A stretch of 64,000 nucleotides of DNA, from the NCBI GenBank assembly GCA_963725805.1, contig CAVSAF010000023.1:88201-152200 (forward strand), given 5' to 3'. Shown one piece after another: positions 14,443 through 64,000 of the stretch. This DNA comes from an uncultured Chloroflexia bacterium (lineage in GTDB: Bacteria; Chloroflexota; Anaerolineae; Anaerolineales; Villigracilaceae). The translations under genes and the position numbers were made by a program. Numbering within the stretch: position 1 is the first letter of the stretch; each line of letters starts with the position of its first letter. The notes beneath the pieces were generated by a model that was not told where the DNA came from, made no database searches, and worked only from the letters and a program-made list of their open reading frames with translations.

Positions 14443-15471
<1,029 letters not shown>

Positions 15472-15472
15472 G

Positions 15473-42463: not shown

Positions 42464-42513
42464 ATTCATCCCACAAGAGATTAATAATATCCTCTTGAAT
42501 TGAGATCATCTTG

Positions 42514-45066: not shown

Positions 45067-46647
45067 ATGAAAGCTTTTCTTAAAGGGTTTCCCTGGTACT
45101 ATGTTTTAATCAGTATTTTCCCTCTACTGTTTTTGTGGAGGCTAAACGTTTTTGAGATTTCTACTTCTGTAGTTTTGCGTCCTTTCCTGGTCACTTTGTT
45201 GGGATCAGCGCTCATCATTGGTATTCTCTTTATAGTTGTTCGAAATGTGGGGAGAGCCGCGTTGATAGGGAGTTTGATTCTGGTGGCTTTCTTTTCATAC
45301 GGTCACGTTTACTATGAAGCCCGTACTTCGCCGGCGTTGAGGATTTTCAGCCATCACAGCACTTTAATTCCCATTTATCTGGTTGTCTTCGGCCTTGGTA
45401 TTTGGGGAATAATGCGAATCAAAAAATATGAGAAGGTGAGCCGTTATCTAAATATAGTGAGTCTGGTACTGGTTGTAATCCAGGTTGCTCAATTGAGCTA
45501 TTCATATATGGGAGCGTTTTATGGAGCTCACCGTCCGGTGACATTGCAGTCTGGCCTGACAGTTACGACTGCCCGCAGGGATTTGCCGGATATATATCTT
45601 ATTGTCTTGGATGGATATGCACGCGCAGATGCAATGCAGCAGGATTTGGGGTTTGACAACACACAATTTATTGAACAGTTGAAACAGATGGGGTTTTATG
45701 TGGCACGCTGCAGCCGCCCCAATTATCGATTCACTTTGGGCTCCATCGCCTCAACATTGAACATGAAATATATCCCCGGGGCGTATGCAGAAGATTTTTA
45801 TGGAAGTACTTTTTGGAGCAATATCAAGAACAATGAGGTGCGTCGTCAATTGGAAAGCGTTGGTTATAAAACTGTGTCTTTCCTGGGAGATGACCCAAGG
45901 GTTGCTTTTGATGATGCAAATATCCTTTTTGCAGTGGACCGTCCGGCAATGGATTTTGGATACTTATATTCATTTGAGGCCATGTACGTTAAAAGTACCG
46001 CGGCGATTATTCTGACAGATCTGGAATCCAAATTGAAGATATCTCAAAACTTTGACCGGAATTCCTCCAGTCAGCAAACCACCTCGGTGGATTTTTCCGG
46101 TATGGGTCCAGCCAACAGCGATCTTATCAGGGAGCATGTTACTGCGCAGTTGTTTTTTCTTGATAAACTACCTACGGTTCCTTCCATTGAAGGACAAAAA
46201 TTTACCTACGTTCATATCACCATGCCGCATTTTCCGTATGTCTTCAATCCAGACGGCAGGATGTTGACTGATCCCGGTTATTATGGTGGAGATCGCGGAG
46301 ATGCGGTGAACGCTGAATATCAAAAACAAGGCTATATTGATCAGGTGAAATATATTAACAAGCGAATTATCCCCATCCTGCAGACGATAATCCATGCATC
46401 AAAGACACCTCCCATTATCGTTCTTATGGGTGACCATGGTTTGAGAGGTAACAACCGCTTTGCAAATTTGAATGCCTATTATTTACCGAAAGGATATAAG
46501 GATTTGTACGAATCCATCACTCCTGTCAATTCATTCCGCATAATCCTTAATGAATACTTTGGTGCCAATTACCCCTTGTTGCCCGACGTAACATACGAAG
46601 CTGATGCTTTGATCGTCAATGAGACATATCCGGGCTGTACGCCATAA
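45067..46647 (+). CDS. Membrane-anchored sulfatase-superfamily transferase (LtaS-like), copy 2, AT-rich
   Basis: Same architecture as 42514..44046 (IYLIVLDGYARADAM...FTYVHITMPHFPYVF...IIVLMGDHGLRG...NAYYLP...ITPVNSFRIILNEYFGANYPLL). The hand-counted line 45121-45180 is 38% GC, against 57% for 44101-44160. Confidence 0.6.
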   Translation: MKAFLKGFPWYYVLISIFPLLFLWRLNVFEISTSVVLRPFLVTLLGSALIIGILFIVVRNVGRAALIGSLILVAFFSYGHVYYEARTSPALRIFSHHSTLIPIYLVVFGLGIWGIMRIKKYEKVSRYLNIVSLVLVVIQVAQLSYSYMGAFYGAHRPVTLQSGLTVTTARRDLPDIYLIVLDGYARADAMQQDLGFDNTQFIEQLKQMGFYVARCSRPNYRFTLGSIASTLNMKYIPGAYAEDFYGSTFWSNIKNNEVRRQLESVGYKTVSFLGDDPRVAFDDANILFAVDRPAMDFGYLYSFEAMYVKSTAAIILTDLESKLKISQNFDRNSSSQQTTSVDFSGMGPANSDLIREHVTAQLFFLDKLPTVPSIEGQKFTYVHITMPHFPYVFNPDGRMLTDPGYYGGDRGDAVNAEYQKQGYIDQVKYINKRIIPILQTIIHASKTPPIIVLMGDHGLRGNNRFANLNAYYLPKGYKDLYESITPVNSFRIILNEYFGANYPLLPDVTYEADALIVNETYPGCTP

Positions 46648-48398: not shown

Positions 48399-49346
48399 AT
48401 GGCTGCACTGCCGCTCGTTACGATTGTTACTCCATCCTATAACCAGGCGCGTTTTCTGGAAGCGACCTTGCGCTCGGTGTTGGAACAGGATTATCCAAGC
48501 ATTGAATATCTGGTTGTGGACGGCGCATCCACTGACGGAAGTGTGGAGATCATCCGTCGTTATGCCAACCGCCTGACCTGGTGGGTCTCCGAAAAGGACT
48601 CTGGTCAGCCGGAAGCGGTCAACAAGGGCTTGCAGCGGGCACGTGGTGAATTCGTTGGCTGGCTCAATTCTGATGATATCTACCTCCCGGGTGCACTGTC
48701 CGCAGCCGTAAAGACTTTCCAGTCTCACCCGGAGGCGGGCCTGGTCTATGGCGACGCCCTGGCGATCGACACGGACGGCAAGCCGTTCAACGTGATGCGC
48801 GCCCGCCAGTACACGCTGGCGGATTTGATGGCTTTCAATATTATTTGCCAGCCGGCGGCCTTCATGCGGCGGTCAGTCCTGGTTGAAGTGGGGTATCTCA
48901 ATCCAGCCTACCACCTGCTTATGGACAACCTCCTATGGATGAACATGGCACAGAAGGCTCCCATCCTGTACGCACCACAAACCTGGGCAGCCGCCCGCTA
49001 CCACGACCAGGCCAAGAACCGCACGCGCGGCGCAGCCTATGGACGGGAGGCCAGGGTATTGATTGCCGATTTGCAATCCCGATCGGAATTTTCCGATCTC
49101 ATCCGGTCGGATGAGAAGCGCATCCTCGCCGGGGTGGAACGCTTCGATGCCTTTTATCTCACTGATGCAGGTCATCCGTGGGAGGCGTTGCGTTCTTATG
49201 GGCGGGCCTTTCGTCTTCATCCTGCGACATCCGCCCAGGATTGGAAGCATATTCTTCTGGCATTTTTATCCCTGCTTGGGCTGGGGAAGATCCGCCAGTG
49301 GTACGATCGACTGCGCACCCGCCGCCTGAATTTAGGACAAAGATGA
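48399..49346 (+). CDS. GT2-family glycosyltransferase (paralogue of 52389..53171)
   Basis: LVTIVTPSYNQARFLEATLRSVLEQDYPSIEYLVVDGASTDGSVEIIRRYANRLTWWVSEKDSGQPEAVNKG...WLNSDD. Confidence 0.8.
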   Translation: MAALPLVTIVTPSYNQARFLEATLRSVLEQDYPSIEYLVVDGASTDGSVEIIRRYANRLTWWVSEKDSGQPEAVNKGLQRARGEFVGWLNSDDIYLPGALSAAVKTFQSHPEAGLVYGDALAIDTDGKPFNVMRARQYTLADLMAFNIICQPAAFMRRSVLVEVGYLNPAYHLLMDNLLWMNMAQKAPILYAPQTWAAARYHDQAKNRTRGAAYGREARVLIADLQSRSEFSDLIRSDEKRILAGVERFDAFYLTDAGHPWEALRSYGRAFRLHPATSAQDWKHILLAFLSLLGLGKIRQWYDRLRTRRLNLGQR

Positions 49347-50863
49347 AATTCCTGGTAAAAAGACCTTTTTTTGAACAACCCTGGGTGTGGAAAACCTTAC
49401 TGGCGGCAATTCTGCTGGGCAGCTTCGCTCTGCGCATGATCAACCTGAAAAATCCACCATTGGATTTCGCCGGCACCCGCCAGTTGTTTTCCGCCCTGAA
49501 AGCCCGCGGCATTTATTACCAGTACATGAGCAATGTTCCGGAAGCCACCCGGCAACTGGCGATCAACCTGGGTAATCTGGCGAATATCGAACCGCCTGTG
49601 CTGGATAATCTCGTTGCGCAAACTTACCGGGTAACCGGCGAGCATTTATGGATTGCCCGCATCTATTCTGCCTTCTTTTGGGTGATTGCCGGGTTGGCGC
49701 TTTTCCTGCTCATTCGGGAATTTGCCTCCACCAGCGCGGCCATGATCGGGACGATCTTTTACCTTTTTGTACCTTTCGGGGTGATTGCCAGCCGGGCTTT
49801 CATGCCAGATCCCTTGATGGTGTGCCTGATTATCTTCTCGCTGTGGGCGCTTTTCCGCTGGCAGGTTACCGCCAGTTGGAAATGGGCAATTGCATTTGGC
49901 ATCTTTGCAGGTTTGGCTTTGTTTGTCAAGAACCTGTCGGTATTTATTATCCTGGGGGGATTTGCCGGGGTCATCCTTGGGGCAAGAGGCTTGAAAAGAT
50001 CCATCCGCGACCCGCAGGTCTGGACGATGGCTGGGCTGATGATCCTGCCGGTGGGTATTTATACAATATATGGGATACTGAAACTGAATATGGCGGGACA
50101 ATTTGCCTTGCGTTTCTTCCCAAATATGTGGGTCGACCCGGCATTCTATTTTCGTTGGGCTTTTACAGTAAATGCCAACATCGGCTGGACGGCAGTCCTC
50201 GTGGCTGCCCTGAGCATTTTCCTGGCCGATTCGAAGCGTGAGCGGCCTCTTTTGATCGGATTATGGGTTGGCTATTTCCTTTTTGGGATGGTCTTTTCGT
50301 ACCATTTTTATTCACATGATTATTACCAGTTGCCTTTTATCCCCGTGGTTGCCATCTCGATGGCTCCAGGCTTGCGGCTGTTCTTTGAGCGCTTTTTCAA
50401 AATAAGTCCGGGCATCTTTCCCCGGCTGGTCTTGACTGCGGTGGTGCTGGTCGGGATGGCAATCCCGTCCTGGTACTCCCGCGATCTGATCATGGGTTCT
50501 GATTATTCCAATGAGCCCGGTTTCTGGGCCGGGATCGGTGATAAACTCGGCCATGCTGGCGGCGTGATTGGTCTGACCCAGGATTATGGCTACCGCCTGG
50601 CCTACTGGGGCTGGCAGGGCTCAACTGCCTGGCTTACCAGCGCTGATATCGACCTGCGCTACCTGGCTGGGCAGAACGTGAATCTTTTGCAAACCTTCCA
50701 GCAGGATACCGCCGGTTATAAGTACTTCCTTGTCACCATGTTCGGGGAGCTGGACAAGGAACCGGTCATAAAGGATTTGCTGTACAAGAATTATCCGATC
50801 TATGTCCAGACGGATGAATATATCATATTCGATCTCCAGCATCCTCTTTCGACCCATCCATAA
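49343..50863 (+). CDS. GT-C-like (ArnT/GT39-83 type) membrane glycosyltransferase candidate
   Basis: ATG 49343 overlaps the GT2 stop (ATGA); ORF-track 49178 overlaps the GT2. ...RMINLKNPPLDF...IARIYSAFFWVIAGLALFLLIREF...FVPFGVIASRAFMPDPLMV... Confidence 0.55.
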   Translation: MKFLVKRPFFEQPWVWKTLLAAILLGSFALRMINLKNPPLDFAGTRQLFSALKARGIYYQYMSNVPEATRQLAINLGNLANIEPPVLDNLVAQTYRVTGEHLWIARIYSAFFWVIAGLALFLLIREFASTSAAMIGTIFYLFVPFGVIASRAFMPDPLMVCLIIFSLWALFRWQVTASWKWAIAFGIFAGLALFVKNLSVFIILGGFAGVILGARGLKRSIRDPQVWTMAGLMILPVGIYTIYGILKLNMAGQFALRFFPNMWVDPAFYFRWAFTVNANIGWTAVLVAALSIFLADSKRERPLLIGLWVGYFLFGMVFSYHFYSHDYYQLPFIPVVAISMAPGLRLFFERFFKISPGIFPRLVLTAVVLVGMAIPSWYSRDLIMGSDYSNEPGFWAGIGDKLGHAGGVIGLTQDYGYRLAYWGWQGSTAWLTSADIDLRYLAGQNVNLLQTFQQDTAGYKYFLVTMFGELDKEPVIKDLLYKNYPIYVQTDEYIIFDLQHPLSTHP

Positions 50864-50878
50864 GGATAATGGCCAAGA

Positions 50879-52385
50879 ATGGACAGTGTTAGGGAACACA
50901 AATTATTTGCTAGACCTTGGCTGATGACAGTTCTGCTGGTAGTGCTTTTTGTTGCCGCCCTCGGCATCCGGCTGTATGATCTGACCGACCTGCCGAATGA
51001 TTTCTATATGACACGCCAGTATCGTTCGCTGCTGATTGCCCGCGGTATGTATTATCAACATCTGACCACCATCCCGGATTGGCAGCGCAGCATGGCAGTC
51101 TCCCAGTGGAAAGCGGAAGGGCTGATTGAGCCTCCCATCATGGAAGGCATCGTCGCACTGACTTATAACCTGACCGGCGTGCAAACCTGGATGGGCCGCG
51201 TTGTATGCTTCCCTTTTCTGGCTGGCTGGCGGCTTCGCCATCTGGCTTCTGGCAAAAGAGATGTCCATGCGGGCCGGCGGCATCATCGCCCTGGCTTATT
51301 TTTTGTTCGTTCCATTTGGGGTGACAGTCAGCCGGGCTTTTCTGCCCGATCCATTGATGGTGGCGATGATCGCCTGGTCGCTTTGGGCGCTCTATCGTTG
51401 GGAGAAGTATCGGACCTGGAAAATGGCCATCCTGGCCGGCGTGTTGACCGGTTTGACGATTCTTGTTAAATCGGTGGCAGTTTTTCCGCTGTTGGGCGCA
51501 GCCGCCGGATTGGTGATCAGTCGGGTCTCCTGGAAGCGCATTTTTGCCGATAAACAAACCTGGCTCGTGGTTGGCATTACGATTGTCCCGACCATTATCT
51601 ACTATGTATATGGGATCATTACCAGTAACCTGGGCAGCCAATTTGGGCTGCGCTTCTTTCCCTCATATTGGATGGATCCATCTTTCTACGGTCGCTGGAT
51701 TTTTATGGCAGCTGGTTTCGCCGGGTTTGCGGCCATGTTCGCCGCGTTGATCGGTATCCTGTTATATCCCACCAATCGCCAGCGTTTCATCGCCATCGGC
51801 CTGTGGGTTGGATACATTGCTTACGGTTTCACTTTCCCTTATCACTTCATCACCCATGATTATTATCACCTGCCGATTCTCCTGGTGGTGGCCTTCGGCC
51901 TGGTCCCGGTGGCAGATTTCCTGGTGCGAGGCCTGTTGGAGCAGAAAGGCTGGGTTTGGCGGGCCGGATTCGTCGGAGTTTTGTTGCTCGGTGTAGCTAT
52001 GCAAATGTGGGGAGAGCGCAATACCATGGCAGTGGCTAATTATCGGGATGACATCCCTTATTATCAGAATCTTGGGAATTTGATCGGACATGATAAAAAA
52101 ATAATCGAAGTTTCTGGCGATTATGGTTACAGGCTGGCTTATTGGGGCTGGATAAGCGGGGAATATTGGCCAAGTAACATGGATACCAACCTGCGTTCCC
52201 TGGCTGGGCAGGCTGCCCCGGTATTCTCGTCCGAGTTTTCCCGCTATACAGCCGGCATGGATGAATTTGTCATCACGTCCCTTGGTGAACTCGATGCGCA
52301 GCCTCAACTGCGTGATTACCTGGCTGATGGTTATCCAATTTTTGCTAAGGGTGAAGGTTACCTGATCTACAATCTCAAGCCGTGA
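50879..52385 (+). pseudogene. Paralogue of 49343..50863, split by a +1 frame disruption at ~51200
   Basis: ORF 50879..51469 matches the paralogue only up to ...LTGVQTWMGRV. ORF 51201..52385 resumes at YASLFWLAGGFAIWLLAKEMS...FVPFGVTVSRAFLPDPLMV, exactly where the paralogue has IYSAFFWVIAGLALFLLIREFAS. The junction is GGC CGC GTT [G] TAT GCT. Confidence 0.7.
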
Positions 52386-52388
52386 CCT

Positions 52389-53171
52389 ATGTCTGACACA
52401 AATTTGCCTCTCGTCTCGATTATCACACCGTCCTTTAACCAGGCGCATTTCCTGGAAAGCACCATATGCTCGGTCTTGGATCAGGATTATCCCAACATTG
52501 AATACATCATTGTGGACGGCGGGTCCAACGATGGTAGTGTGGAAATCATCCGGCGTTACTCGGATCGGTTGGCCTGGTGGGTTTCGGAAAAAGACCGCGG
52601 CCAGACCGATGCCATCAACAAAGGCTTCGCCCACGCAAAAGGCGCAATCCTGGCCTGGCTTAACTCCGACGATACTTACGAAAAAAACGCCGTGAGGGAG
52701 GCGGTCGCGTTTTTACTCGACCACCCCGAGGTTGGCCTGGTGTATGGTAATGCCAATTTTATAGATGAGGCCGGCCAAATGATCGGTCATTTTCCTGCTG
52801 CCCAGACCAGTTACAGGCGTTTAAGACGCGGCTATGTCCACATCCCTCAGCAGTCCTCCTTCTGGCGTGCGGACTTATGGCGCAAGGTTGGTCCGCTCGA
52901 CCCTTCGTTTTATTTTGCAATGGATTACGATTTGTGGGTCCGGCTGGCAGCTTTGGCTCCCGTACAATATTTACCACGGCTCTGGGCAAATTTTCGCCTT
53001 CACACTCGCGGAAAAACGATCACCGCAGATGATCGCTGCTGGCCGGAAATGCTCAAGGTACATTATCGTGATGGTGGCTCATGGTTCGGGGTATTGCCAG
53101 CCAAGTACCTCCTTCGCAAGGCGGTTGGACCGCTGCTCAGTGCGCGCCGCCGCGCAAAATTATCAGGATAG
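52389..53171 (+). CDS. GT2-family glycosyltransferase (paralogue of 48399..49346)
   Basis: LVSIITPSFNQAHFLESTICSVLDQDYPNIEYIIVDGGSNDGSVEIIRRYSDRLAWWVSEKDRGQTDAINKG...WLNSDD. Confidence 0.8.
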   Translation: MSDTNLPLVSIITPSFNQAHFLESTICSVLDQDYPNIEYIIVDGGSNDGSVEIIRRYSDRLAWWVSEKDRGQTDAINKGFAHAKGAILAWLNSDDTYEKNAVREAVAFLLDHPEVGLVYGNANFIDEAGQMIGHFPAAQTSYRRLRRGYVHIPQQSSFWRADLWRKVGPLDPSFYFAMDYDLWVRLAALAPVQYLPRLWANFRLHTRGKTITADDRCWPEMLKVHYRDGGSWFGVLPAKYLLRKAVGPLLSARRRAKLSG

Positions 53172-53313: not shown

Positions 53314-54132
53314 ATGCAATCAACCCCGATTTATGATTCAGCCCAATTAATTCCGCACGCCCTCCAGGAACTGAAGGAAGCATTGAATTACCGTCACCTG
53401 CTTTTCCAACTGGTGCGACGTGATATTGTTGCTCGCTATAAACGCTCCTTCCTTGGCGTGGCCTGGACCATGCTCAGCCCACTGGGTATCATGCTGGTTC
53501 TCAGCTTCGTCTTTTCTCAACTGTTTGGCCAGATCCGCGCATACCCTGCCTACATATTATGTGGCCTGATGGCCTGGAATTTCTTTTCCCAGAGCACCAT
53601 GATGGCAATAAGCAGCCTGGTTTGGGGAGGCGGATTGCTGCAACGCATTTATATCCCGCGTGCTGCTTTTGGCATCTCCGCGATTGGATCGGGCATGGTT
53701 AACCTGATCTTATCCTTTGTACCACTCATTATTGTGATGGCCATCACAGGGGTATCGCTCCGGATCACAGTAGCTTTCCTGCCAGTTTCTCTACTATTAC
53801 TGGCCTGTTTCACCCTCGGCCTGGGCCTGACGATTTCGACACTGGCAGTCTATTTCCCTGATGTGGCCGAGATGTACCAGATCATCCTGACTGCCTGGAT
53901 GTACCTGACTCCGATCATTTATCCGGAGACGATCTTTCCGGCCAAATACGCATTGATCTTGCATCTAAATCCCTTATATTACCTGGTCAAACTCTGGCGC
54001 CTGCCATTGTATGATGGGCGTTGGCCCACTTGGGGTGAGATCTGGCCGGCCATGGTGATAGCTTTCGGGATGTTGTTGGTGGGATGGCTCATCTTTACCT
54101 CAAAATCCGATGAATTTGCCTATCGTGTCTGA
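53314..54132 (+). CDS. wzm: ABC-2 type polysaccharide export permease (Wzm-like), copy 2
   Basis: YRHLLFQLVRRDIVARYKRSFLGVAWTMLSPL motif plus 6 TM helices. Confidence 0.85.
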   Translation: MQSTPIYDSAQLIPHALQELKEALNYRHLLFQLVRRDIVARYKRSFLGVAWTMLSPLGIMLVLSFVFSQLFGQIRAYPAYILCGLMAWNFFSQSTMMAISSLVWGGGLLQRIYIPRAAFGISAIGSGMVNLILSFVPLIIVMAITGVSLRITVAFLPVSLLLLACFTLGLGLTISTLAVYFPDVAEMYQIILTAWMYLTPIIYPETIFPAKYALILHLNPLYYLVKLWRLPLYDGRWPTWGEIWPAMVIAFGMLLVGWLIFTSKSDEFAYRV

Positions 54133-54904
54133 GTCGCTTAGGATAATTGCTGAGGATTCTGTGACTAATCTTGTGGAGGCTGTTCATCTCGAGGCTGTTT
54201 CAGTACGCTACCGTGTGCCCAGCGAACGTGTTGGCAGCTTTAAAGAATATTTTATCCGCCGGCTGAAAGGCCAGGTCCAAATGCGTACGTTCTGGGCACT
54301 ACAGGATGTCAGCTTTGAGGTTAACCGGGGCGAGGTGTTCGGACTGGTAGGGGTTAACGGAGCCGGCAAGAGCACACTTCTCAAGGTGGTGGCACGCGTC
54401 CTGCGTCCCACCCGGGGCCGGGTGGTGGTTAGAGGCAGGGTGGCACCTCTGCTGGAGCTGGGCGCTGGTTTCCACCCGGAACTGACTGGTGAAGAGAATA
54501 TCTACCTGAACGGTGCCTTGCTGGGTTTCAGTCGCCATGAAATGCAGGAAAAATATGACCAGATCGTGGATTTCTCCGAACTGGGTGAGTTCATCAATGC
54601 TCCCATCCGGACCTATTCCTCTGGTATGTACGCTCGCCTGGGCTTTTCAGTCGCCACTGCCAGCGAGCCGGATGTCTTGATCGTGGACGAAGTTCTATCC
54701 GTCGGGGACGAGGCCTTCCAGAAGAAATGTGAGGCGCGTATCAATGCCTTTCGCCAACGCGGCGCAGCCATTTTGTTGGTCTCTCACACCATGGCCACGA
54801 TCGAGGAAATGTGCCAGCGGGCTGCCTGGCTGGATCATGGGACCTTAAAGGCCATTGGAGAGCCTACCCAGGTCATCCAGGCTTATCGGGAAAGGGGAAG
54901 TTGA
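54110..54904 (+). CDS. wzt: ABC exporter ATPase (Wzt-like), copy 2, no C-terminal binding domain
   Basis: Walker A GVNGAGKST, signature YSSGMYARLGF, Walker B VLIVDEVL. It ends about 20 aa after the H-loop (264 aa). The exact start is uncertain (23-nt overlap with wzm). Confidence 0.8.
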   Translation: MNLPIVSESLRIIAEDSVTNLVEAVHLEAVSVRYRVPSERVGSFKEYFIRRLKGQVQMRTFWALQDVSFEVNRGEVFGLVGVNGAGKSTLLKVVARVLRPTRGRVVVRGRVAPLLELGAGFHPELTGEENIYLNGALLGFSRHEMQEKYDQIVDFSELGEFINAPIRTYSSGMYARLGFSVATASEPDVLIVDEVLSVGDEAFQKKCEARINAFRQRGAAILLVSHTMATIEEMCQRAAWLDHGTLKAIGEPTQVIQAYRERGS

Positions 54905-54908
54905 ACTT

Positions 54909-55457
54909 ATGGTGTTCGAAAAGACCGACATACCTGATGTATTGATAATTCAACCCAAGGTCTTTGGTGATAAGCGGGGTTTCAACCTGGAAACTTTTCG
55001 CTCGGACATCTTTGCCAGATCAGGCATACCCGGACCTTTCGTTCAGGACAATCATTCCGGTTCCCAGCAAGGTATTTTACGTGGGCTGCACTACCAGATT
55101 CGCCAAAGTCAGGGAAAACTGGTCCGTGCTGTTGTAGGGGTGATCTTTGATGTCGCAGTGGACCTGCGGCGAAGCTCGCCGACTTTCGGCCGCTGGGTGG
55201 GGGTACTTCTTTCCGCAGAAAACAAGCTGCAGGTGTGGATACCGATGGGTTTTGCACATGGGTTTTATGTTTTAAGTGATTGGGCGGAAGTGATCTATAA
55301 AACCACGGATTATTATGCCCCTGAATGGGAACGCTCGCTGAAATGGAACGATCCAACCTTGGGGATAAAATGGCCGCTGCTGCATGGAAGGGAACCGGTT
55401 CTCTCGGAAAGAGATTCACATGGGAAATTATTATCCGAGGCGGAACTCTTCGATTAG
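54909..55457 (+). CDS. rmlC: dTDP-4-dehydrorhamnose 3,5-epimerase
   Basis: IPDVLIIQPKVFGDKRGFNLETF...QDNHSGSQQGILRGLHYQ...GKLVRAVVGVIFDVAVDLR...GFAHGF. Confidence 0.9.
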   Translation: MVFEKTDIPDVLIIQPKVFGDKRGFNLETFRSDIFARSGIPGPFVQDNHSGSQQGILRGLHYQIRQSQGKLVRAVVGVIFDVAVDLRRSSPTFGRWVGVLLSAENKLQVWIPMGFAHGFYVLSDWAEVIYKTTDYYAPEWERSLKWNDPTLGIKWPLLHGREPVLSERDSHGKLLSEAELFD

Positions 55458-55467
55458 GAGTTGCACA

Positions 55468-56556
55468 ATGAGGACCATTCTGGTTACCGGCGGCGCAGGG
55501 TTTATTGGCTCAAATTTCGTTCGTTACGTTTTAAGGACCCAGCCCGATTCTTTCGTTGTCAATCTGGATCTGCTGACCTATGCCGGCAGCCTGGAAAACC
55601 TGAAGGATTTGCCCTCATCTGAACGCTACGAATTTATTAAGGGTGACATTTGCGATCAATCCCTGGCAGAGGACATCCTTCGGCGCAATGCGGTGGATAC
55701 CATTGTACATTTTGCCGCAGAAACACATGTTGACCGGTCCATCATTGGCCCCGCTGCATTTGTGCGGACCAACATCTTTGGTACTTTTTCCCTTCTGGAA
55801 GCAGCCCGCAAGGTCTGGTTGGATGAAAACGAGGCAGATGGTAAAACTGTCCGCTTTCATCATGTGTCCACAGATGAAGTCTTTGGTTCGTTGACCGCGG
55901 ACGCACCTGCTTTCGAGGAGACTACTCCTTATTCCCCGAATTCACCTTATGCGGCTTCTAAAGCCAGTAGTGATCATCTGGTTCGCGCTTATTTGCATAC
56001 TTATGGCTTGCCCATCACGCTCACCAACTGCTCGAATAATTATGGGCCATACCAGTTCCCTGAAAAGCTTATTCCATTGGTCACTTTCAATGCATTGGAG
56101 GGAAAACCCTTGCCCATCTATGGCGACGGGAAACAGATTCGTGACTGGCTGTATGTGGAGGATCATTGCGAGGCCATCTGGCAGGTTCTGGAACATGGGC
56201 AGATTGGCGAGAGCTACAATATTGGTGGGAACAACCAACCCACAAATCTGGAAATTGTGGATACCATCTGTGAGATTCTGGACGAGTTGAAGCCTGGATC
56301 GCCCTATCACCCCCATGCCGGTTTGAAGAAATTTGTGAACGACCGGCCGGGACATGATCGGCGTTATGGCATGAATATTAATAAAATCAAGCGGGAATTG
56401 GGCTGGCATCCGAAATATACTTTGAGGGAAGGCCTCTTGAAAACAATTGCTTGGTATCTGGAGCATGATGATTGGATCAAGACCATACGTAAGCAAAAAG
56501 AATACCAGTCGTGGCTTGACCAGAACTATGCTGAACGTGTGGAGGGCCAGAAATGA
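55468..56556 (+). CDS. rmlB: dTDP-glucose 4,6-dehydratase
   Basis: [14 protein letters not shown]...[11 protein letters not shown]...[19 protein letters not shown]...[20 protein letters not shown] 55468 follows AGGAG. Confidence 0.9.
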
Positions 56557-57428
56557 AAGGAATCATCCTGGCGGGAGGCAAAGGAACACGTTTGCACCCA
56601 CTTACCCTGGCAGTGAGCAAGCAGCTCCTCCCGGTGTACGATAAACCTTTGATTTATTATCCGCTTTCAATGCTGATGCTTGCAGGAATTCGTGAAGTTC
56701 TGGTCATCAGCACCCCGGATGATCTGCCGCTTTTCAGACATTTATTGGGCAGTGGCCAGCAGTGGGGGATGCAGTTCAGTTATGCTGAACAAGCCGAGCC
56801 GCGCGGCTTGGCAGATGCTTTTATCGTCGGAGAGCAGTTTGTGGGTGAAAATCCGGCCTGCCTGATCCTGGGAGATAATATCTTCTTCGGCCACGGGCTG
56901 GCTGATCAAATGCAAGCGGCTGCAGCATTAAAAATGGGTGCACTGGTGTTCGCCTATCCGGTGCGCGACCCCCAGCGTTATGGCGTGATTGAATTCGATG
57001 ATCGCGGGCGTGCGATCAGCATTGAAGAAAAGCCAGCCAGGCCGCGCTCGAATTTCGCTGTTCCGGGGTTGTATTTCTACGATCATCGCGTGGTGTCCTT
57101 TGCCAGGGCACTCAAGCCCTCCGCACGCGGCGAGATCGAGATCACGGATTTGAACAAGATCTATCTTGAAATGGGCCAATTGCAGGTTCAACAACTGGGA
57201 CGCGGCATTGCCTGGTTGGATGCAGGCACGCATGAATCACTCTTGCAGGCGGCTAATTTTATCCAGACCGTGCAGGAAAGGCAGGGAATTATGATTTCCT
57301 GCCCGGAGGAGATTGCCTATCGAAAGGGTTTCATCTCCCGGGAAGCGTTAATCGCGATAGCTGGTTCGTACAAGCATAATGGCTATGGCGATTACCTGTT
57401 CCGGTTGATTGAGATGGAAGTTTCATGA
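56553..57428 (+). CDS. rmlA: Glucose-1-phosphate thymidylyltransferase
   Basis: [39 protein letters not shown]...RGLADAF...LGDNIF...YGVIEFD. Confidence 0.9.
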
Positions 57429-58285
57429 GACTGCTCCTTTTGGGCAACACCGGCCAGCTCGGTTGGGAATTACAGCGCACCTTGCAGCCACTTGGGGTTG
57501 TAGGCGCGTGCGATTACCCCGAGATTGATCTGGCAGATTCAGCCAGCATCCGGGAAACAGTACGTGGATGTCGCCCGGACGTGATTGTCAATGCCGCCGC
57601 TTATACCGCCGTGGATAAAGCCGAGAGTGAACCGGAACTCGCTGAAGCCATTAATAATTTCGGGCCGGGCCTGCTGGCAGAAGAAGCCCGTAATCTGAAT
57701 GCCATCCTTGTTCATTACTCTACTGACTATGTTTTCGATGGCGATAAAGGCATCCCCTATCAAGAGGCCGATCCTCCCCATCCAATCAATGTATATGGCG
57801 CGAGCAAACTGGCCGGGGAGCAGGCCATCCAATCAGTGGGCGGGGATTACCTGATATTTCGCACGGCCTGGGTCTACAGCCTTCGCCGGGACAGTTTCGT
57901 TTCAAAGGTATTGGGCTGGGCTCGAAATAACGAAACCCTGCGAATAGTGGATGATCAAGTCAGCAATCCCACCTGGGCGCGCATGCTGGCCGAGGTGACT
58001 GCACAGGTTCTAGCCCGGGGCATGGATTATATGCGGGAGCGGGCTGGTCTGTACCACCTGGCTGGAGATGGTTACACAAGCAGATACGCCTGGGCAAAAG
58101 AAATTCTCAGCCTTGATCCCAAAAAGCAGGAGCACAAAATGATACAATTGCTTCCCGCAAAGAGCGCTGATTTTCCCACCCCGGCGCAACGCCCACTTTT
58201 CTCGGCTTTGGAATGTGGAAAGTTCACCGCCTCATTTGGATTATGTTTGCCTGCATGGGCAAAGGCGCTCAGTTTGGCTATGTAA
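57425..58285 (+). CDS. rmlD: dTDP-4-dehydrorhamnose reductase
   Basis: [13 protein letters not shown]...[12 protein letters not shown]...STDYVFDG...YGASKLAGE...RTAWVY. Confidence 0.88.
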
Positions 58286-58465: not shown

Positions 58466-61400
58466 ATGAATAATAAACATAAAACGCTGGCACAACTATA
58501 TTCAGAACATAAGGGTAAAGTATCTGACAAGTGGACACGTTACTTCTCGGAGTATGATACCCTTTTTGAGGAATTTCGTGACAGATCTGTTCGAATGCTG
58601 GAAATTGGTGTTCAAAATGGTGGAGGATTGGAGATCTGGGCACGTTATTTTAGGAATGGGTTGAAATTTATCGGCTGCGACATCGATCCAAACTGTGCCG
58701 CTCTTCGTTTTGATGATCCGCGCATCGAATTGGTGATAGGGGATGCCAACGACGATTCAACTCAAAAAGAGATTCTGTCTCACAGCCCGGAGTTGGACAT
58801 AGTGATCGATGATGGGTCACACTGGTCGGGCGATATAGTCCGTTCCTTTCTGAGATACTTTTCCAATTTGGTGGATGGCGGTGTGTATGTGGTGGAAGAT
58901 CTGCACACCAGTTACTGGAAGGAATATGAGGGAGGCCTGTTTGACCCATTTTCCTCCATCACTTTCTTCAAGCGACTGATAGATATTGTTAACTCCGAGC
59001 ATTGGGGGGTTGAGCGACCGCCTGCAGACATTTTGGCGGGCTTCCAGGAAAAGTATGGCGTGAGAGTCACTGCAGAAATATTGCAGCATATACACTCCAT
59101 TAAATTTACCAACTCGTTGTGTGTCATCATGAAATCCCGGTCGTCCGATAATAAACTGGGGAGGCGTTTTGTTGTTGGCGATGTTGCGGCTGTTAAATCC
59201 GATTTGAAGCAATATGATGAGAGTTTCATTGTGCCTTTGCCGCAAAATCAAAATCCCTGGTCCGTGCGAATTCGTCCGCCTGATGAAGAACTTCCCGAGC
59301 GCGAGCAGGAGGTGATGGCGCTGACAGAACAAATGGAAGCGAAAGAACAGGCTCTCCAGGCCATGGCAGAACAGGTGACGGAAAAGGAGCGGTCCATGCA
59401 GGGGCTCTCAGCGCAGCTGGCAGAGAAGGAGCAGGCCGTTCACATGCTCTCAGCGCAGCTGGCAGAGATTAATAATAGCAGGGCATGGAAGATCGCGTTA
59501 TTGTTACGCCGAATCCGCATCTTGTTTGCTCCTCCCAATAGCCGTCGCGCAAGGGTGTTACGGCGAATGATCAATGCGATATTTTCCCCATTTATCAAAA
59601 TCAGAAGAAACCTGAAATCCAAAAGAGAATCCGCCTTAATCAAGTCATCAGGTTTATTTGATGAAACATGGTATTTAGCCCAAAATCCTGACGTCGCCCT
59701 GGCAAAGGAGAATCCACTTCTTCATTATCTTCACAATGGTGGTTTCGAAGGTCGCGACCCCAGCCCAGGTTTTTCCAGCCAGAGATATCTGGACAATAAT
59801 CCGGATGTGCGGGCCGCAGGAATCAACCCGCTGGTGCATTACTTACGATTTGGTAAGAAAGAAGAACGATCGCCATTTCGCGACCAGATAATAAACACCC
59901 ATTTACAGAACAAAACCTCTGAAGAGAGCAAATTTTCACATTCTTTGCGGATGTTTCGAAGATATTTACTGCAACAACATCCACGTTTTTTTCATTTTTT
60001 GCGTAACATAATACCTCCTGCGATCCGTCTGAAAATTACTAAATATTTGGTTGGCGATGAGGACAATACCATTAGAGCACCATTATCTCGTGGAAGCTCT
60101 AAATTGTTGGAGAACCCCTTGGTACATGAAGAAAACGTTAAGGAATATGAAACTCTGTTACGAAGGATTCAAGAGATTTCCCAACTGAATACGAAAGAGG
60201 TTTCTATTAAAGCTCCCAGGCTAATCTCGTTGAGAGAGGACCACTTAGCTCTGATGCAAGCTGCTCAAACCATCAAATTACCATCAAGCCAGACGCCGAA
60301 AGTATCTGTCGTGATCCCGGTTCATAATAACGCGAAGCTTTTATTGGAGTGTTTAAGCTCCCTGCAAAATGACGTAACATTGAATGATTTTGAAATTTGT
60401 GTGGTGGACGATTCTTCTGATGGTGAGAATCGGGAAATTATTGAAAACATAACCGGAATCAAGCAGGTTCACAATCAAGAACGCATAGGTTTTGGGCGTT
60501 CATGTAATATCGGTGCTCAAATATCCGAAGGAGAGTTTCTCCTATTCTTAAATGACGATGCACAAATGATGGAAGGTGCAATCAATTCCTTGTTGCACAC
60601 CTTTGAAACACATTCAGAGACAGGAGCTGCGGGACCGAAGATGTTATATCCGTCCGGCCTTCTACAGGAAGCCGGCTGCGCAATAAATATCGATGGGACG
60701 GTCACCATGATCGGGCATGGGGATGATCCGGTATTGCAACGATACAATTACTTGCGAGAAGTAGATTATGTCTCGGGTGTTTGCTTAATGGTGAGGAAGG
60801 ATCATTTTAATGCAGTGGGGGGTTTTGAGGAGGCTTACACCCCTGCATATTATGAAGACGTCGATTTGTGCTTGAAATTACGGGAAAAGGGACTAAAGAT
60901 CTTTTATAACCCCGACTCCGTTGTCGTGCATCATCTAAGTGCTACTACTTCTGGATTATACGGTCAAAAAACCAAATTGGACCTTGTGGCTCGTAATCGA
61001 CAGAAGCTGCTGGAACGCTGGCAACCAAAAATTGATGAACTGAATCAAATACGATTGATTGCATTTTACTTGCCCCAGTTTCATCCCATCCCAGAAAATG
61101 ATATATGGTGGGGGAAAGGGTTTACTGAGTGGCAAAATGTTGTTAGTGCTCATCCTTTTTTTGGTGGACATTATCAACCTCACTTGCCAGCAGATTTGGG
61201 TTTCTATGATTTGCGGGTACCCGAGGTCATGGAACAACAGGCAGAGTTGGCGAAACGGTATGGTATTTATGGGTTTTGTTACCATTATTACTGGTTTAAT
61301 GGTAAACGCCTTTTAGAGATGCCCTTGGAGAGAATGCTTGAGACCGGACGTCCCGATTTCCCCTTTTGCTTATGCTGGGCCAATGAGAATTGGTCGCGCA

Positions 61401-62110
61401 AGTGGGATGGCGGCGAGAAAGACATCTTGATTGCGCAAAAGCATTCTGATGAAGATGATTTGTCCGTTATCCTGGATTTGATCAGGTATTTTAAGCATCC
61501 CAATTATATAAGGGTGGATGGGAAACCCATGTTTTTGGTGTATCAGGTTAATTTATTCCCTGACTTTAAAAGGACAGCCCGGATTTGGCGCGAAGAGTGC
61601 CGTAGACAACGAATTGGTGAAATCCATTTGGTGATGGCTGAGACTTTTTCGCTGTCGTTGGAGCAATCAGATCCCAAAGAGTTTGGTATGGATGCGGCAG
61701 TACAATTTCCTCCCCATGGATATTGGGAGCCCATAGGCCCTGCAAATATGGCCTCTGACTTTAGAGGCCAAGTATTGGATTATAAAAACACAGCATTACA
61801 TTTCATCAAGAAAAAATTTCCGGGTTTTGTTTATTACCAGACTGTAATGCCATCCTGGGATAATACCGCGCGAATGAAAAACAGGGCTGTTATTTTTGCC
61901 AACTCCTCGCCAGGAACTTACCAGGCCTGGCTGGAGGAAGCCATTCGGAATACGCGCGAACAATATTCAGGTGATCATCGTATCGTCTTTATTAATGCCT
62001 GGAATGAGTGGGCGGAAGGAAATCACCTTGAACCAGACCAGCGTTATGGACACGATTTTTTGCAGGCAACGCGTAATGCTGTGGAATATTGGTTGATAGG
62101 AACAGGATAA
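58466..62110 (+). CDS. Multidomain SAM-methyltransferase / coiled coil / NPDV-repeat / GT2 / WbsX-like protein; candidate chain-terminating and chain-extending enzyme (WsaE/WbdD-like logic)
   Basis: aa 1-225: CmcI-type MTase (MLEIGVQNGGGLEIW...GCDIDP...VIDDGSH...VVEDL). aa ~275-340: heptad-rich EQMEAKEQALQAMAEQVTEKERSMQGLSAQLAEKEQAVHMLSAQLAE. aa 398-470: two ~37-aa YLxxNPDV...NPLxHYL repeats. aa 612-835: GT2 (VSVVIPVHNN...VVDDSSDG...FLNDD). aa 862-1214: WbsX-type (IAFYLPQFHPIPENDIWWGKGFTEWQNV). Confidence 0.7.
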   Translation: MNNKHKTLAQLYSEHKGKVSDKWTRYFSEYDTLFEEFRDRSVRMLEIGVQNGGGLEIWARYFRNGLKFIGCDIDPNCAALRFDDPRIELVIGDANDDSTQKEILSHSPELDIVIDDGSHWSGDIVRSFLRYFSNLVDGGVYVVEDLHTSYWKEYEGGLFDPFSSITFFKRLIDIVNSEHWGVERPPADILAGFQEKYGVRVTAEILQHIHSIKFTNSLCVIMKSRSSDNKLGRRFVVGDVAAVKSDLKQYDESFIVPLPQNQNPWSVRIRPPDEELPEREQEVMALTEQMEAKEQALQAMAEQVTEKERSMQGLSAQLAEKEQAVHMLSAQLAEINNSRAWKIALLLRRIRILFAPPNSRRARVLRRMINAIFSPFIKIRRNLKSKRESALIKSSGLFDETWYLAQNPDVALAKENPLLHYLHNGGFEGRDPSPGFSSQRYLDNNPDVRAAGINPLVHYLRFGKKEERSPFRDQIINTHLQNKTSEESKFSHSLRMFRRYLLQQHPRFFHFLRNIIPPAIRLKITKYLVGDEDNTIRAPLSRGSSKLLENPLVHEENVKEYETLLRRIQEISQLNTKEVSIKAPRLISLREDHLALMQAAQTIKLPSSQTPKVSVVIPVHNNAKLLLECLSSLQNDVTLNDFEICVVDDSSDGENREIIENITGIKQVHNQERIGFGRSCNIGAQISEGEFLLFLNDDAQMMEGAINSLLHTFETHSETGAAGPKMLYPSGLLQEAGCAINIDGTVTMIGHGDDPVLQRYNYLREVDYVSGVCLMVRKDHFNAVGGFEEAYTPAYYEDVDLCLKLREKGLKIFYNPDSVVVHHLSATTSGLYGQKTKLDLVARNRQKLLERWQPKIDELNQIRLIAFYLPQFHPIPENDIWWGKGFTEWQNVVSAHPFFGGHYQPHLPADLGFYDLRVPEVMEQQAELAKRYGIYGFCYHYYWFNGKRLLEMPLERMLETGRPDFPFCLCWANENWSRKWDGGEKDILIAQKHSDEDDLSVILDLIRYFKHPNYIRVDGKPMFLVYQVNLFPDFKRTARIWREECRRQRIGEIHLVMAETFSLSLEQSDPKEFGMDAAVQFPPHGYWEPIGPANMASDFRGQVLDYKNTALHFIKKKFPGFVYYQTVMPSWDNTARMKNRAVIFANSSPGTYQAWLEEAIRNTREQYSGDHRIVFINAWNEWAEGNHLEPDQRYGHDFLQATRNAVEYWLIGTG
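59404..59468 (+). repeat. Perfect 23-bp direct repeat (gctctcagcgcagctggcagaga) at 59404..59426 and 59446..59468, offset 42 bp
   Basis: Read directly from the sequence. It encodes LSAQLAE twice, 14 codons (two heptads) apart, inside the coiled-coil segment. Confidence 0.9.
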
Positions 62111-62120
62111 TCAAAAGAAA

Positions 62121-63263
62121 ATGACAACCAATTCCTTGGACAATCCCGTGATTGTTGGCAAGCCTTTTGCACCCACGGGAAGAGGTGTTACAGCTCTGAG
62201 CCATTTTAGGGCTCTTCGCCAGGCGGGTGTTTCGACCTCGGTCTGTGACGTGGGTTCAAGACAGGAGATAAATCAGCCCAGGCCTGGCATTGCAAATGAG
62301 CTGGGAAAATTTCTTATAAACAAACCCGGCCGTTCGATCAATATTTATCATTTAAATGCGGATGAGATAGAGCACGCACAGGCAGTATTGAAGCATTCTT
62401 TGCCGGACGGCGCCTACAATATAATCTACCCATTCTGGGAGTTAAGTAAGTATCCCCAAAAGTATCTGGATTCCTTGGCGGTTTTTGATGAAGTCTGGGC
62501 ACCGTCGAAGTTTATTGAAGATGCCCTCCGTGATGGAATCTCCAAACCGATCTATCACATGCCCTTGCCAGTGGAAATCAGCCTATCCTCTTTTCTCGGG
62601 AGAAGTTATTTTGGCATCCCGGATAGCTCATATGTCCTCCTTTTTTTCTTCGATTTCCGATCCTATCTTGAACGGAAGAATCCGCAGGCCCTGCTTCAGG
62701 TTGTTGAGAAAGTTTTATCCTCACGGCCGTACGGAGATATTCGCATAGTTCTTAAAGTGCATGGTATCGACGTCTCTCCAAAAACAGCCGGCGATTATAG
62801 GGATTTCCTTGATCAAATCCGCGAGAGAAATATTAAGGATCGGGTGATTGTTCTAGAGAAAGTTTATTCAGATAATGAAATGAGAAATTTGGTCCGTTGC
62901 TGCGATTGTTTTGTTTCTCTTCATCGCTCTGAAGGCTTTGGGCTCGGCATGGCCGAGGCGATGTACCTGGGGAAACCCGTCGTTGCAACCGCATATTCTG
63001 GTAACATGGATTTTATGAACGAAAACATATCCTGTCTGGTTGATTATAGACTTATTCCAGTTGAGGAAGGACAATATCCATTTCCGGATGGACAGGTTTG
63101 GGCGGACCCGGATCTGGATCAGGCTGCATATTTCGTACAGAAGCTTTTCGATGACCGTAATTATGGGAGAGAGATTGGTCAACTCGCTAGTCGCCATATC
63201 CGTACCAATTTCAGTTATTTATCGATGGGTTTACGCTATAAATGGCGGCTTGACCAGTTATAA
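62121..63263 (+). CDS. GT-B glycosyltransferase, family 1/GT4-like
   Basis: ...CFVSLHRSEGFGLGMAEAMYLGKPVVATAYSGNMDFM is the GT4 E-x7-E region. Confidence 0.7.
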   Translation: MTTNSLDNPVIVGKPFAPTGRGVTALSHFRALRQAGVSTSVCDVGSRQEINQPRPGIANELGKFLINKPGRSINIYHLNADEIEHAQAVLKHSLPDGAYNIIYPFWELSKYPQKYLDSLAVFDEVWAPSKFIEDALRDGISKPIYHMPLPVEISLSSFLGRSYFGIPDSSYVLLFFFDFRSYLERKNPQALLQVVEKVLSSRPYGDIRIVLKVHGIDVSPKTAGDYRDFLDQIRERNIKDRVIVLEKVYSDNEMRNLVRCCDCFVSLHRSEGFGLGMAEAMYLGKPVVATAYSGNMDFMNENISCLVDYRLIPVEEGQYPFPDGQVWADPDLDQAAYFVQKLFDDRNYGREIGQLASRHIRTNFSYLSMGLRYKWRLDQL

Positions 63264-63535: not shown

Positions 63536-64000
63536 ATGTTAAAAAATAAGTCATCTTTCTTATTATCAAATATTGGTTCATTTTTATTTCTTTTCTTGTT
63601 TATTGCTTTGGCATTATGCCTGGTTTTTTCAAAAGGTGTGTGTTGTGCTGACGATGCTTATTATGCAATGACTGCCAAGAACCTTGCCAATGGATTAGGG
63701 TATGCTAATTCTTTACCGCAAGATCAAGCTCGGTTTACCCTGCAACCATTTGATGCTTGGTCCGGAGTAGGCCCTACAATTATCCTTCCGGCTGCTCTTT
63801 TTATAAAGGTTTTTGGCAATACCTATTGGGCACCAGGTTTGGCGAGTGTTTTTCTTTGGTCTTTGTTGCTCGTTCTTATAGGATTTTACATAAGAAAAAA
63901 AGAGCATGGGTTTGGATTTATCTTTTTCACTTTATCTTTTTTATTTCTCAGTTATTCTTTAATGACATGGCATTTTGAGCAGTGGTATGCACTGCTTGGT
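63536..64000 (+). CDS. GT-C (ArnT/GT39-83-like) membrane glycosyltransferase, 3'-truncated by the window edge
   Basis: Not in the ORF track because no stop is reached. My translation from ATG 63536 is MLKNKSSFLLSNIGSFLFLFLFIALALCLVFSKGVCCADDAYYAMTAKNLANGLGYANS...PTIILPAALFIKVFGNTYWAPGLASVFLWSLLLVLIGFY. The DDAYY loop after TM1 is the ArnT/PMT-type catalytic-loop signature. Confidence 0.55.
   Translation, partial: MLKNKSSFLLSNIGSFLFLFLFIALALCLVFSKGVCCADDAYYAMTAKNLANGLGYANSLPQDQARFTLQPFDAWSGVGPTIILPAALFIKVFGNTYWAPGLASVFLWSLLLVLIGFYIRKKEHGFGFIFFTLSFLFLSYSLMTWHFEQWYALLG

Follow-up and report, generated by a model that had tools for sequence, protein, structure and literature searches.

The DNA analysed here is a stretch of 64,000 nucleotides from an uncultured Chloroflexia bacterium (contig CAVSAF010000023.1, positions 88,201 to 152,200; henceforth the window). 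The open reading frame (ORF) at 58466..62110 (+) encodes a protein of 1214 amino acids that joins an N-terminal methyltransferase head, a coiled-coil stalk, a glycosyltransferase family 2 (GT2) domain and a C-terminal WbsX domain. We read this protein as a cytoplasmic, peripherally membrane-bound synthase of a polysaccharide that is exported via a transporter of the ATP-binding cassette (ABC) type and is most likely rich in L-rhamnose. The methyl-adding head would terminate the chain, the stalk would bias its length and export would probably be ungated. We put the probability of this reading at roughly 0.6. At the level of the family, sequence comparison gives good support to the view that the head terminates the chain and is joined to a polymerase through a coiled-coil stalk; for this particular synthase, we infer the ruler function and the specificity for rhamnose.

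The proposed mechanism is as follows. The GT2 domain and the WbsX barrel, together with a separate GT4 enzyme, would extend an undecaprenyl-linked chain at the membrane, with deoxythymidine diphosphate (dTDP)-L-rhamnose for this extension being supplied by the adjacent rmlCBAD genes. The O-methyltransferase would be held at the far end of the eight-heptad stalk, about 8-10 nm long at 0.15 nm per residue, while a basic amphipathic segment would tether the stalk's base to the membrane. O-methylation, on a hydroxyl of the terminal 6-deoxyhexose, would be confined to chains that extend as far as the head. As this cap would block further extension, stalk length would bias chain length. The exporter subunit Wzt2 carries no cap-reading module, and passage through it would probably not be gated by the cap.

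To our knowledge, only a few enterobacterial O antigens have been shown to have their chain length controlled by a coiled-coil ruler. The very large and highly modular family described below allows the ruler idea to be tested far outside Klebsiella and offers ready-made parts for glycoengineering. It also raises two questions: what a barrel resembling glycoside hydrolase family 99 (GH99), with an intact glutamate pair, does inside a cytoplasmic polysaccharide synthase, given that its family PF14307 is widespread, and whether a stalked terminator can control chain length if the exporter no longer has a cap-reading module.

Domain architecture of the synthase

The ORF begins with an ATG (the first ATG past a stop), and its coordinates, strand and length agree with those of an earlier reading made from the DNA letters (the first-pass annotation). 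A pseudogene or fusion artefact is ruled out by the intact ORF, the conserved catalytic motifs and the occurrence of the same architecture in two homologs (P0004 and P0006). The protein is composed of the following parts:

58466..59170 (+): head, residues 1-235, Mg-dependent S-adenosylmethionine (SAM) sugar O-methyltransferase of the MycE/TylE/SpnK type (phmmer, AlphaFold2 (AF2), Foldseek, conservation)
59279..59476 (+): coiled-coil stalk, residues 272-337, eight heptads from four 14-residue repeats, net charge -6 (AF2 helix, heptad phasing)
59477..59650 (+): basic amphipathic segment, residues 338-395, net charge +16 (charge, hydrophobic moment)
59651..59875 (+): two NPDV repeats, residues 396-470, about 37 residues each, three short helices per repeat (predicted local distance difference test, pLDDT, >90)
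60266..61030 (+): GT2 (GT-A) glycosyltransferase domain, residues ~601-855 (PF00535, AF2, Foldseek)
61040..62107 (+): PF14307 'WbsX' domain, GH99-like (beta/alpha)8 barrel, residues 859-1214 (PF14307, AF2 topology, profile search)

A scan with hidden Markov models for the domain families named in the first-pass annotation places Glycos_transf_2 and Glyco_tran_WbsX above threshold and Methyltransf_24 below it (residues 45-145; E 2.4e-3; 19.2 bits, under the Pfam cut-off of 26.3). The head is nevertheless recognised by direct comparison with structures. Against PDB chains, phmmer matches residues 20-178 to MycE (3ssm, E 6.4e-19; 8ia9, E 5.6e-17). The methyltransferase domain is confidently modelled in the AF2 model of residues 1-600, for which Foldseek returns MycE (4e-14) and the spinosyn methyltransferase SpnK (6e-14), with other methyltransferases far behind. 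The domain had been described as a CmcI-type SAM methyltransferase; its nature as a SAM methyltransferase holds, but the MycE/TylE/SpnK type fits better. By alignment with MycE, motif I comprises E46-G48-N51-G52-G53, the metal ligands are D116 (D275 in MycE) and E144-D145 (E303-D304), and the base is H119 (H278). In this family, Asp275, His278 and Asp304 (MycE numbering) serve as Mg ligands and catalytic base (PMC9275233). Across 49 relatives (46-72% identity), E46, G48, N51-G53, D115, D116, S118, H119, E144 and D145 are invariant, and D72 and D93 are kept in at least 90%. The SAM-binding residues, the possible lack of which had been named as a weak point of the terminator proposal, are thus present along with the metal and base residues.

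In rhamnose or 6-deoxyallose, MycE-type enzymes methylate the 2'- or 3'-OH, and they do so when the sugar is part of a glycoside and not when it is a nucleoside diphosphate sugar (PMC9275233). MycE, TylE, SpnK and ThnM1 have the catalytic domain, fold, Mg ligands and catalytic histidine in common with the head, and they act on the 2'- or 3'-OH of 6-deoxyhexoses, L-rhamnose included, after glycosyl transfer (PMC9275233). The predicted activity of the head is methylation of a terminal sugar. The identity to MycE is about 26-28% over the aligned structure, and the match starts only around chain residue 183-203 of MycE, i.e., it covers the catalytic domain, whereas the MycE region N-terminal of it is unmatched in the synthase. 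Moreover, the substrate of the synthase would be a polymer end and not a macrolide.

The heptad-rich coiled coil proposed for residues 275-340 is borne out by both structure prediction and heptad phasing. AF2 predicts one unbroken helix from residue 272 to 336 (65 residues). Residues 282-337 form eight heptads in a single register, with L/I/V/M/F at 13 of the 16 a/d positions compared to 2 of the 40 other positions, a contrast matched by none of 20,000 shuffles (0/20000). The stalk also has sub-threshold matches to coiled-coil Pfam families. Judged by sequence and AF2 model, the synthase has one of the traits of the terminator class, namely a domain of predicted cap-adding activity at one end of an extended coiled coil.

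Directly after the coiled coil, the basic segment opens with a conserved S-x-x-W-[RK] junction motif that recurs at the coiled-coil end in many homologs. Its hydrophobic moment (muH) reaches 0.69 at residues 362-379, and no transmembrane segment was found in the 1214-residue sequence. The segment at residues 338-395 is therefore a putative peripheral, membrane-proximal anchor at the base of the stalk. The NPDV repeats that follow, already remarked upon in the first-pass annotation, are present in two confidently folded copies with the consensus LFDxxWYLxxNPDVxxAGxNPLxHYLxxGxxEGRxP, for which no Pfam family was matched. Homologs carry between 0 and 14 copies (e.g., P0039, P0018), situated between the stalk and the catalytic domains. 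In the synthase, a linker modelled by AF2 with low confidence comes after the repeats.

For the GT2 domain, Pfam threshold, fold and motif agree on membership of the inverting GT-A glycosyltransferases. PF00535 (Glycos_transf_2) matches residues 614-729 (E 2.9e-23; 83 bits for a cut-off of 23.3), with the GT-A fold reaching to about residue 855. The motifs are D648-D649, the DXD-type N696-D697-D698 and E797-D798, the latter two in conserved alignment columns. A weak match to TIGR01556 'rhamnosyltran' (2.4e-10) is also observed. The AF2 model of residues 556-1214 (pLDDT 84; predicted template modelling score 0.87) shows the GT-A fold followed by an alternating beta/alpha barrel, and the top 50 Foldseek matches of this two-domain model are all GT-A enzymes.

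The barrel corresponds to PF14307 (Glyco_tran_WbsX), matched over its full length (residues 864-1202; model positions 1-350 of 350; E 9.5e-136; 453 bits for a cut-off of 25.1), with W-A-N-E974-N-W, W-D1132-N1133 and N1180-E1181-W-A-E1184 as invariant motifs. A profile of 66 WbsX domains searched against all PDB sequences retrieved nothing but GH99 endo-alpha-mannosidases (E 0.015, 0.02 and 0.29) and one unrelated weak match. In the GH99 alignment, the three matched stretches are collinear and N1180-E1181-W-A-E1184 aligns to N332-E333-W-H-E336 of BxGH99 (4ad1), assuming that the chain index equals the native numbering. In BxGH99, E333 acts as general base and E336 as catalytic acid (PMC6055899). 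The N-E-W-x-E motif comes after the barrel strand formed by residues 618-621 of the AF2 model. The WbsX domain thus appears to be a GH99-like barrel that keeps the Glu-x-x-Glu pair, and several WbsX members are named 'GH99-like domain-containing' by NCBI. The relation is very remote, as the E-values of 0.015-0.29 show, and the Pfam GH99 family PF16317 scores only 14-17.8 bits for a 33-bit cut-off (E 0.0019 on the synthase's own domain), reaching E <=0.1 in 6 of the 66, this domain included. BxGH99 and BtGH99 are endo-alpha-1,2-mannosidases/mannanases with the same barrel and N-E-W-x-E glutamates (PMC6055899); unlike them, the WbsX barrel would be cytoplasmic and is fused to biosynthetic enzymes.

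The first-pass annotation had counted two glycosyltransferase-type domains. The GT2 domain justifies this description, but for WbsX a transferase role is not established because the domain is a GH99-like barrel. WbsX could still be a true nucleotide-sugar glycosyltransferase, in which case GT2 and WbsX (with GT4) would form a two- or three-linkage Leloir polymerase directly analogous to WsaE or the Klebsiella O7 protein ORF6. The Pfam name and the constant position of the domain amid glycosyltransferase domains in polysaccharide loci speak for this option. So does the wbsX gene of Burkholderia gladioli (annotated as O-antigen glycosyltransferase, >1346 codons, with predicted glycosyltransferase domains), in which phage-selected nonsense and frameshift mutations are predicted to lead to an aberrant O antigen (PMC13391952). 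We consider it possible but doubtful, as AF2 gives a (beta/alpha)8 barrel that is neither GT-A nor GT-B, the sole PDB relatives found are GH99 enzymes whose E333/E336 pair (PMC6055899) is kept as the invariant E1181/E1184, and the NCBI names point the same way. The searchable literature yielded annotation-level mentions of PF14307/WbsX and no biochemical study in which transferase activity was demonstrated. A WbsX gene in E. coli might have tied the domain to an O antigen of known structure, but a distant blastn search, with a WbsX gene from an enterobacterium as the query, returned none.

More speculatively, and in our view quite improbably, WbsX may be a GH99-type retaining enzyme that acts via a 1,2-anhydro-sugar on nascent alpha-manno-configured rhamnan in the cytoplasm, either as a transglycosylase or as an endo-editor, such that chain length would be set by head, stalk and barrel without proofreading at export. 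If true, a transglycosylase would aid polymerisation, while an endo-editor would trim or release the chain, and the synthase would be a hybrid of Leloir and non-Leloir chemistry. The 1,2-anhydro-sugar route needs a free 2-OH, and O-methylation by the head would then also shield the chain end from the barrel.

Modularity of the family

A search with the whole protein gave 1167 matches, and domains were mapped on the best 120 with probes taken from the window and from the matches; coiled coils in homologs were flagged with our own heptad heuristic. A proportion of 49 of these 120 proteins carry the MycE-type methyltransferase at the N-terminus, followed in 45 of the 49 by a heptad-like segment that mostly ends at S-x-x-W-[RK]. 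What lies behind methyltransferase and stalk is variable: GT2-WbsX, WbsX-GT4-GT2, two GT2 domains, RgpF, WsaF-like domains or nothing. The order methyltransferase-stalk-GT2-WbsX is found in just three of the best 120 (this synthase, P0004 and P0006), and five proteins (P0040, P0069, P0081, P0085 and P0114) consist of head and stalk only, a WbdD-like layout. The methyltransferase heads most like that of the synthase (60-63% identity) are joined to families of rhamnan synthesis, namely RgpF and WsaF_N/WsaF_C. Conversely, where the synthase has its methyltransferase, other GT2-WbsX modules have Methyltransf_11/25, a second Methyltransf_24 type, sulfotransferase, pyruvyltransferase, GT4 or TPR as their head, and some are headless.

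The closest relative, P0002 (locus L083), shows no similarity to the synthase up to about residue 305; from mid-stalk onwards to the C-terminus the two match closely, and the alignment as a whole has 67% identity. The head exchange (methyltransferase for GT4) therefore has its breakpoint within the coiled coil, at about position 59380 of the window. Across otherwise conserved relatives, stalks measure between about 28 and more than 200 residues. When residues 1-400 (head and stalk) are used as the query, 869 clusters at 50% identity are found with E <=1e-30 and 5464 with E <=1e-10, and the match is N-terminal in nearly all among the matches listed. By these alignments, methyltransferase and coiled coil constitute a mobile N-terminal head cassette on many types of polymerase, and heads of different chemistry, stalks of different length and different polymerase sets have been exchanged, apparently through recombination at the coiled coil.

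Gene neighbourhood and nature of the polymer

The synthase gene lies downstream of the second Wzm/Wzt pair of the window and of rmlCBAD, as the first-pass annotation had stated and as the Pfam matches of the neighbours confirm. All genes are on the + strand in the order wzm2-wzt2-rmlC-rmlB-rmlA-rmlD-synthase, followed by a GT4 gene:

53314..54132 (+): Wzm2, ABC-2 permease of the exporter (PF01061, E 1.7e-17; 29% identical to Wzm1 at 15311-16357)
54110..54904 (+): Wzt2, nucleotide-binding subunit, 264 residues (PF00005 as the sole Pfam match; ends with the nucleotide-binding domain, NBD)
54855-55457 (+): rmlC (PF00908, 3.9e-69)
55384-56556 (+): rmlB (PF16363, 1.7e-91)
56553-57428 (+): rmlA (PF00483, 3.8e-72)
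57425-58285 (+): rmlD (PF04321, 2.7e-95)
62121..63263 (+): GT4 (GT-B) glycosyltransferase, conserved partner of the GT2-WbsX module (PF00534, 4.9e-16)

The true starts of rmlC and rmlB are probably later than listed. A scan of 53-64 kb for promoters and terminators was uninformative because the counts equal those in shuffled sequence.

By their family assignments, rmlC/B/A/D (54855..58285, +) are the dTDP-L-rhamnose pathway, and complete rml sets adjoin synthase homologs in 13 other loci. These genes and the rhamnose-directed family of the head suggest that the polymer contains rhamnose. In 25 of 30 related loci, and also in L085, the gene directly after that for GT2-WbsX encodes a homolog of this GT4, so that the two proteins probably act together. 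The GT4 partner was considered as a WsaF-like rhamnosyltransferase, which was rejected since the PDB search gave generic GT4 matches only.

Instead of a lipopolysaccharide O antigen, the product could be some other glycan that is exported by an ABC transporter (S-layer or protein-linked glycan, capsule-like polymer or exopolysaccharide), and it may not be a rhamnan. S-layer glycans are the product of WsaE-type systems (PMC2943079), the window as a whole is a glycan island of 64 kb that holds several GT-C enzymes and another ABC locus, and no initiating transferase or ligase was identified within these 64 kb. We regard this as rather unlikely, given that rmlCBAD lie directly between exporter and synthase and that rml genes recur beside homologs; it would, moreover, alter the destination of the glycan and not the mechanism.

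Export and the carbohydrate-binding modules of Wzt

In ABC-transporter-dependent assembly, the terminator has a distal position, at the end of a coiled-coil ruler, with the glycosyltransferase modules of the polymerase fused to it or separate (PMC11231755). Every characterised terminated system has a carbohydrate-binding module (CBM) on Wzt, and none pairs a coiled-coil terminator with a CBM-less transporter (PMC11231755). The ABC exporter itself is present here, as Wzm2/Wzt2 are encoded 3.5 kb upstream on the same strand. For comparison, 80 loci from GTDB genomes and two from metagenomes were examined. A C-terminal Wzt extension of 170-230 residues occurs in 12 of the 16 head-bearing loci with a visible Wzt, the other four (L014, L042, L061 and L076) having short Wzts. 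Short Wzts also prevail in headless GT2-WbsX loci (L015, L017, L018 and L024).

The extensions cluster by head chemistry: the best match comes from a locus with the same head type in 10 of 12 cases, in small numbers that are not corrected for phylogeny (methyltransferase or sulfotransferase heads in L001, L003, L005, L007, L008, L011, L044, L047, L055, L056 and L059). As a control, six loci were compared in which the polymerase modules are 50-66% and the NBDs 47-70% identical. Among those with a methyltransferase head the extensions align (E 1e-8 to 1e-57), whereas that of L008, which has a sulfotransferase head, barely aligns with four of the five methyltransferase-head loci (E 0.001 to 6.9). 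The pair L005-L008 is an exception, its extensions aligning at 1.6e-11. L001, with the architecture of the present synthase and the gene order wzm, wzt(Wzt_C), synthase, GT4, has the polymerase most similar to that of L008 (66%), yet the Wzt extensions of the two are unrelated. Such covariation of head and CBM is what would be expected if the head makes the terminal epitope that is read by the CBM, and it accords with the published rule on the placement of terminators (PMC11231755).

Wzt2 stops exactly at the NBD/CBM junction, and the end of its gene overlaps the start of the rmlC ORF. Its NBD is 53-57% identical to those of CBM-bearing Wzts (L059, L044 and L008) and about 40% identical to CBM-less ones, which suggests that a CBM was lost. 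Such a loss is consistent with rmlCBAD coming to lie between wzt and synthase, genes that abut in L001 and are separated by rmlCBAD here. Without a cap-reading module, cap-gated export is probably not to be expected at this locus. The CBM-bearing Wzt1 elsewhere in the window is an unlikely exporter of this glycan, as it lies 40 kb away in a locus of nonulosonic-acid/Kdo type and its CBM is unlike those of head-bearing loci.

The CBM-less exporter also bears on the option that the head decorates the chain instead of terminating it. In that case, O-methylation would be non-stoichiometric or per repeat, the coiled coil would only oligomerise or scaffold, and length would be controlled through coupling to a CBM-less exporter as in Klebsiella O2a/O1. 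Besides Wzt2 itself, the four further head-bearing loci with short Wzts are in keeping with this option, as is Klebsiella O1, in which the terminal pyruvate does no more than add structural variety, chains being exported by the CBM-less transporter whether they bear it or not (PMC11231755). We nonetheless hold decoration to be unlikely. Terminators are marked out by their head-and-stalk cassette (PMC11231755), the CBMs of related loci vary in step with head chemistry, and the affinity of the Wzt2 NBD to CBM-bearing Wzts suggests recent loss of a module rather than a different system. In addition, methylation of the acceptor hydroxyl would stop extension whether export is gated or not.

Assessment of the terminator-ruler reading

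The first-pass annotation had asked whether the protein is a ruler-type terminator-polymerase. Comparative support for this is strong at the family level. It is weakened by the lack of a CBM on Wzt2, the unproven status of WbsX as a glycosyltransferase and the lack of homology to WbdD/WbbB. Several points count against the reading for this synthase. The C-terminal extension of Wzt2 is 0 residues long, compared to 167-228 in CBM-bearing Wzts, so that the CBM which marks the class is absent, and the sole CBM-bearing Wzt of the window, Wzt1, is in a different locus and has a CBM unrelated to those of head-bearing loci. A phmmer search against all PDB chains (E <=0.01) gave just MycE/SpnK-type methyltransferases and GT-A enzymes, i.e., no similarity to WbdD or WbbB. 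MycE Tyr208 is situated in a seven-residue insert that is absent from the head of the synthase, and the methyltransferase might decorate internal residues rather than the chain end. The stalk is short compared to many relatives, and AF2 was run on a monomer. Finally, the literature searched gave no demonstration that WbsX is a transferase. Termination with a length-biasing stalk remains our preferred reading.

Other genes of the window

A separate ABC-transporter glycan locus is located at 14449-44046, with the Wzm1/Wzt1 pair at 15311-17640 (Wzt1 carries Wzt_C). It encodes two KpsC/KpsS-like Capsule_synth proteins (17577-19229 and 38305-39942) and three NeuB paralogs (29275-30162, 35515-36393 and 36415-38304), the last of which is fused to SAF and a xylose-isomerase-like barrel. 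Three cytidine monophosphate-sugar cytidylyltransferases, a Methyltransf_23 protein, a pyruvyl transferase and a Glyphos_transf protein complete the set. The locus looks like one for a polymer of the nonulosonic-acid/Kdo type with its own cap-reading exporter. Its boundary is occupied by the genes for a GT87/PIG-U-like polytopic membrane protein (12575-13795) and, after it, a MarR/winged-helix regulator (13912-14391). Two proteins of about 510-530 residues (42511-44046 and 45067-46647), with weak matches to the sulfatase/alkaline-phosphatase superfamily, are encoded between the two glycan loci and could be phospho-substituent transferases. PMT_2-type GT-C membrane proteins are encoded at 8555-10480, 49178-50863, 51201-52385 and 63557-64000, one of which may run past the window end. 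Small DPM1-like GT2 enzymes (48399-49346 and 52389-53171) adjoin PMT_2-type proteins, which suggests periplasmic decoration of exported glycans that depends on polyprenyl-phosphate sugars.

Comparison with known systems

Klebsiella pneumoniae O7 ORF6 (Kelly et al. 2024, PMC11231755) resembles the synthase in its N-terminal methyltransferase-containing terminator, its coiled-coil ruler and its C-terminal GT2 module(s), which in O7 depend on dTDP-Rha. As here, a stand-alone polymerase partner is encoded next door in an ABC-transporter locus (PMC11231755). The O7 head, however, is a methyltransferase-kinase that makes a methyl-phosphate cap, while the head of the synthase is a MycE-type O-methyltransferase alone. 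O7 has two GT2 modules where the synthase has one GT2 and the GH99-like barrel, and, compared by description only, its partner is a ribofuranosyltransferase instead of a GT4.

WbbB (K. pneumoniae O12/Raoultella terrigena) likewise unites terminator, coiled-coil ruler and polymerase glycosyltransferases in one protein for a rhamnose-containing polymer, but it terminates with a beta-Kdo transferase (GT99) and polymerises with GT102/GT103 modules. WbdD (with WbdA; E. coli O9a/Klebsiella O3) likewise has a terminator that adds methyl, placed distally on a coiled coil with a membrane-proximal base; it differs in combining a kinase with another class I methyltransferase and in having its polymerase as a separate protein. 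The ruler principle of WbdD and WbbB, which the first-pass annotation saw mirrored here, is thus recognisable in the design, though phmmer against PDB chains gives no homology in sequence.

WsaE (Geobacillus stearothermophilus NRS 2004/3a, PMC2943079) fuses an N-terminal rhamnose O-methyltransferase, which adds a 2-O-methyl cap, to rhamnosyltransferase domains, and its locus also contains wzm, wzt and rml genes (PMC2943079). Compared by description only, it has two glycosyltransferase domains and no WbsX barrel, whereas the synthase joins its methyltransferase to one GT2 and the GH99-like barrel. Homologs with the order methyltransferase-coiled coil-two GT2 domains (P0075, P0088, P0099 and others) look closer to WsaE than the synthase does.

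Overall, the synthase would function in the manner of WbbB, Klebsiella O7 ORF6 and WbdD, and its chemistry is like that of WsaE. Some of the family-level patterns described here may already have been published. The design principle as such is established by WbbB, Klebsiella O7 ORF6, WbdD and WsaE, and the synthase differs from them in its parts: a MycE-type methyl head, a short stalk, a GT2 domain with a GH99-like barrel and a GT4 partner, and a CBM-less exporter.

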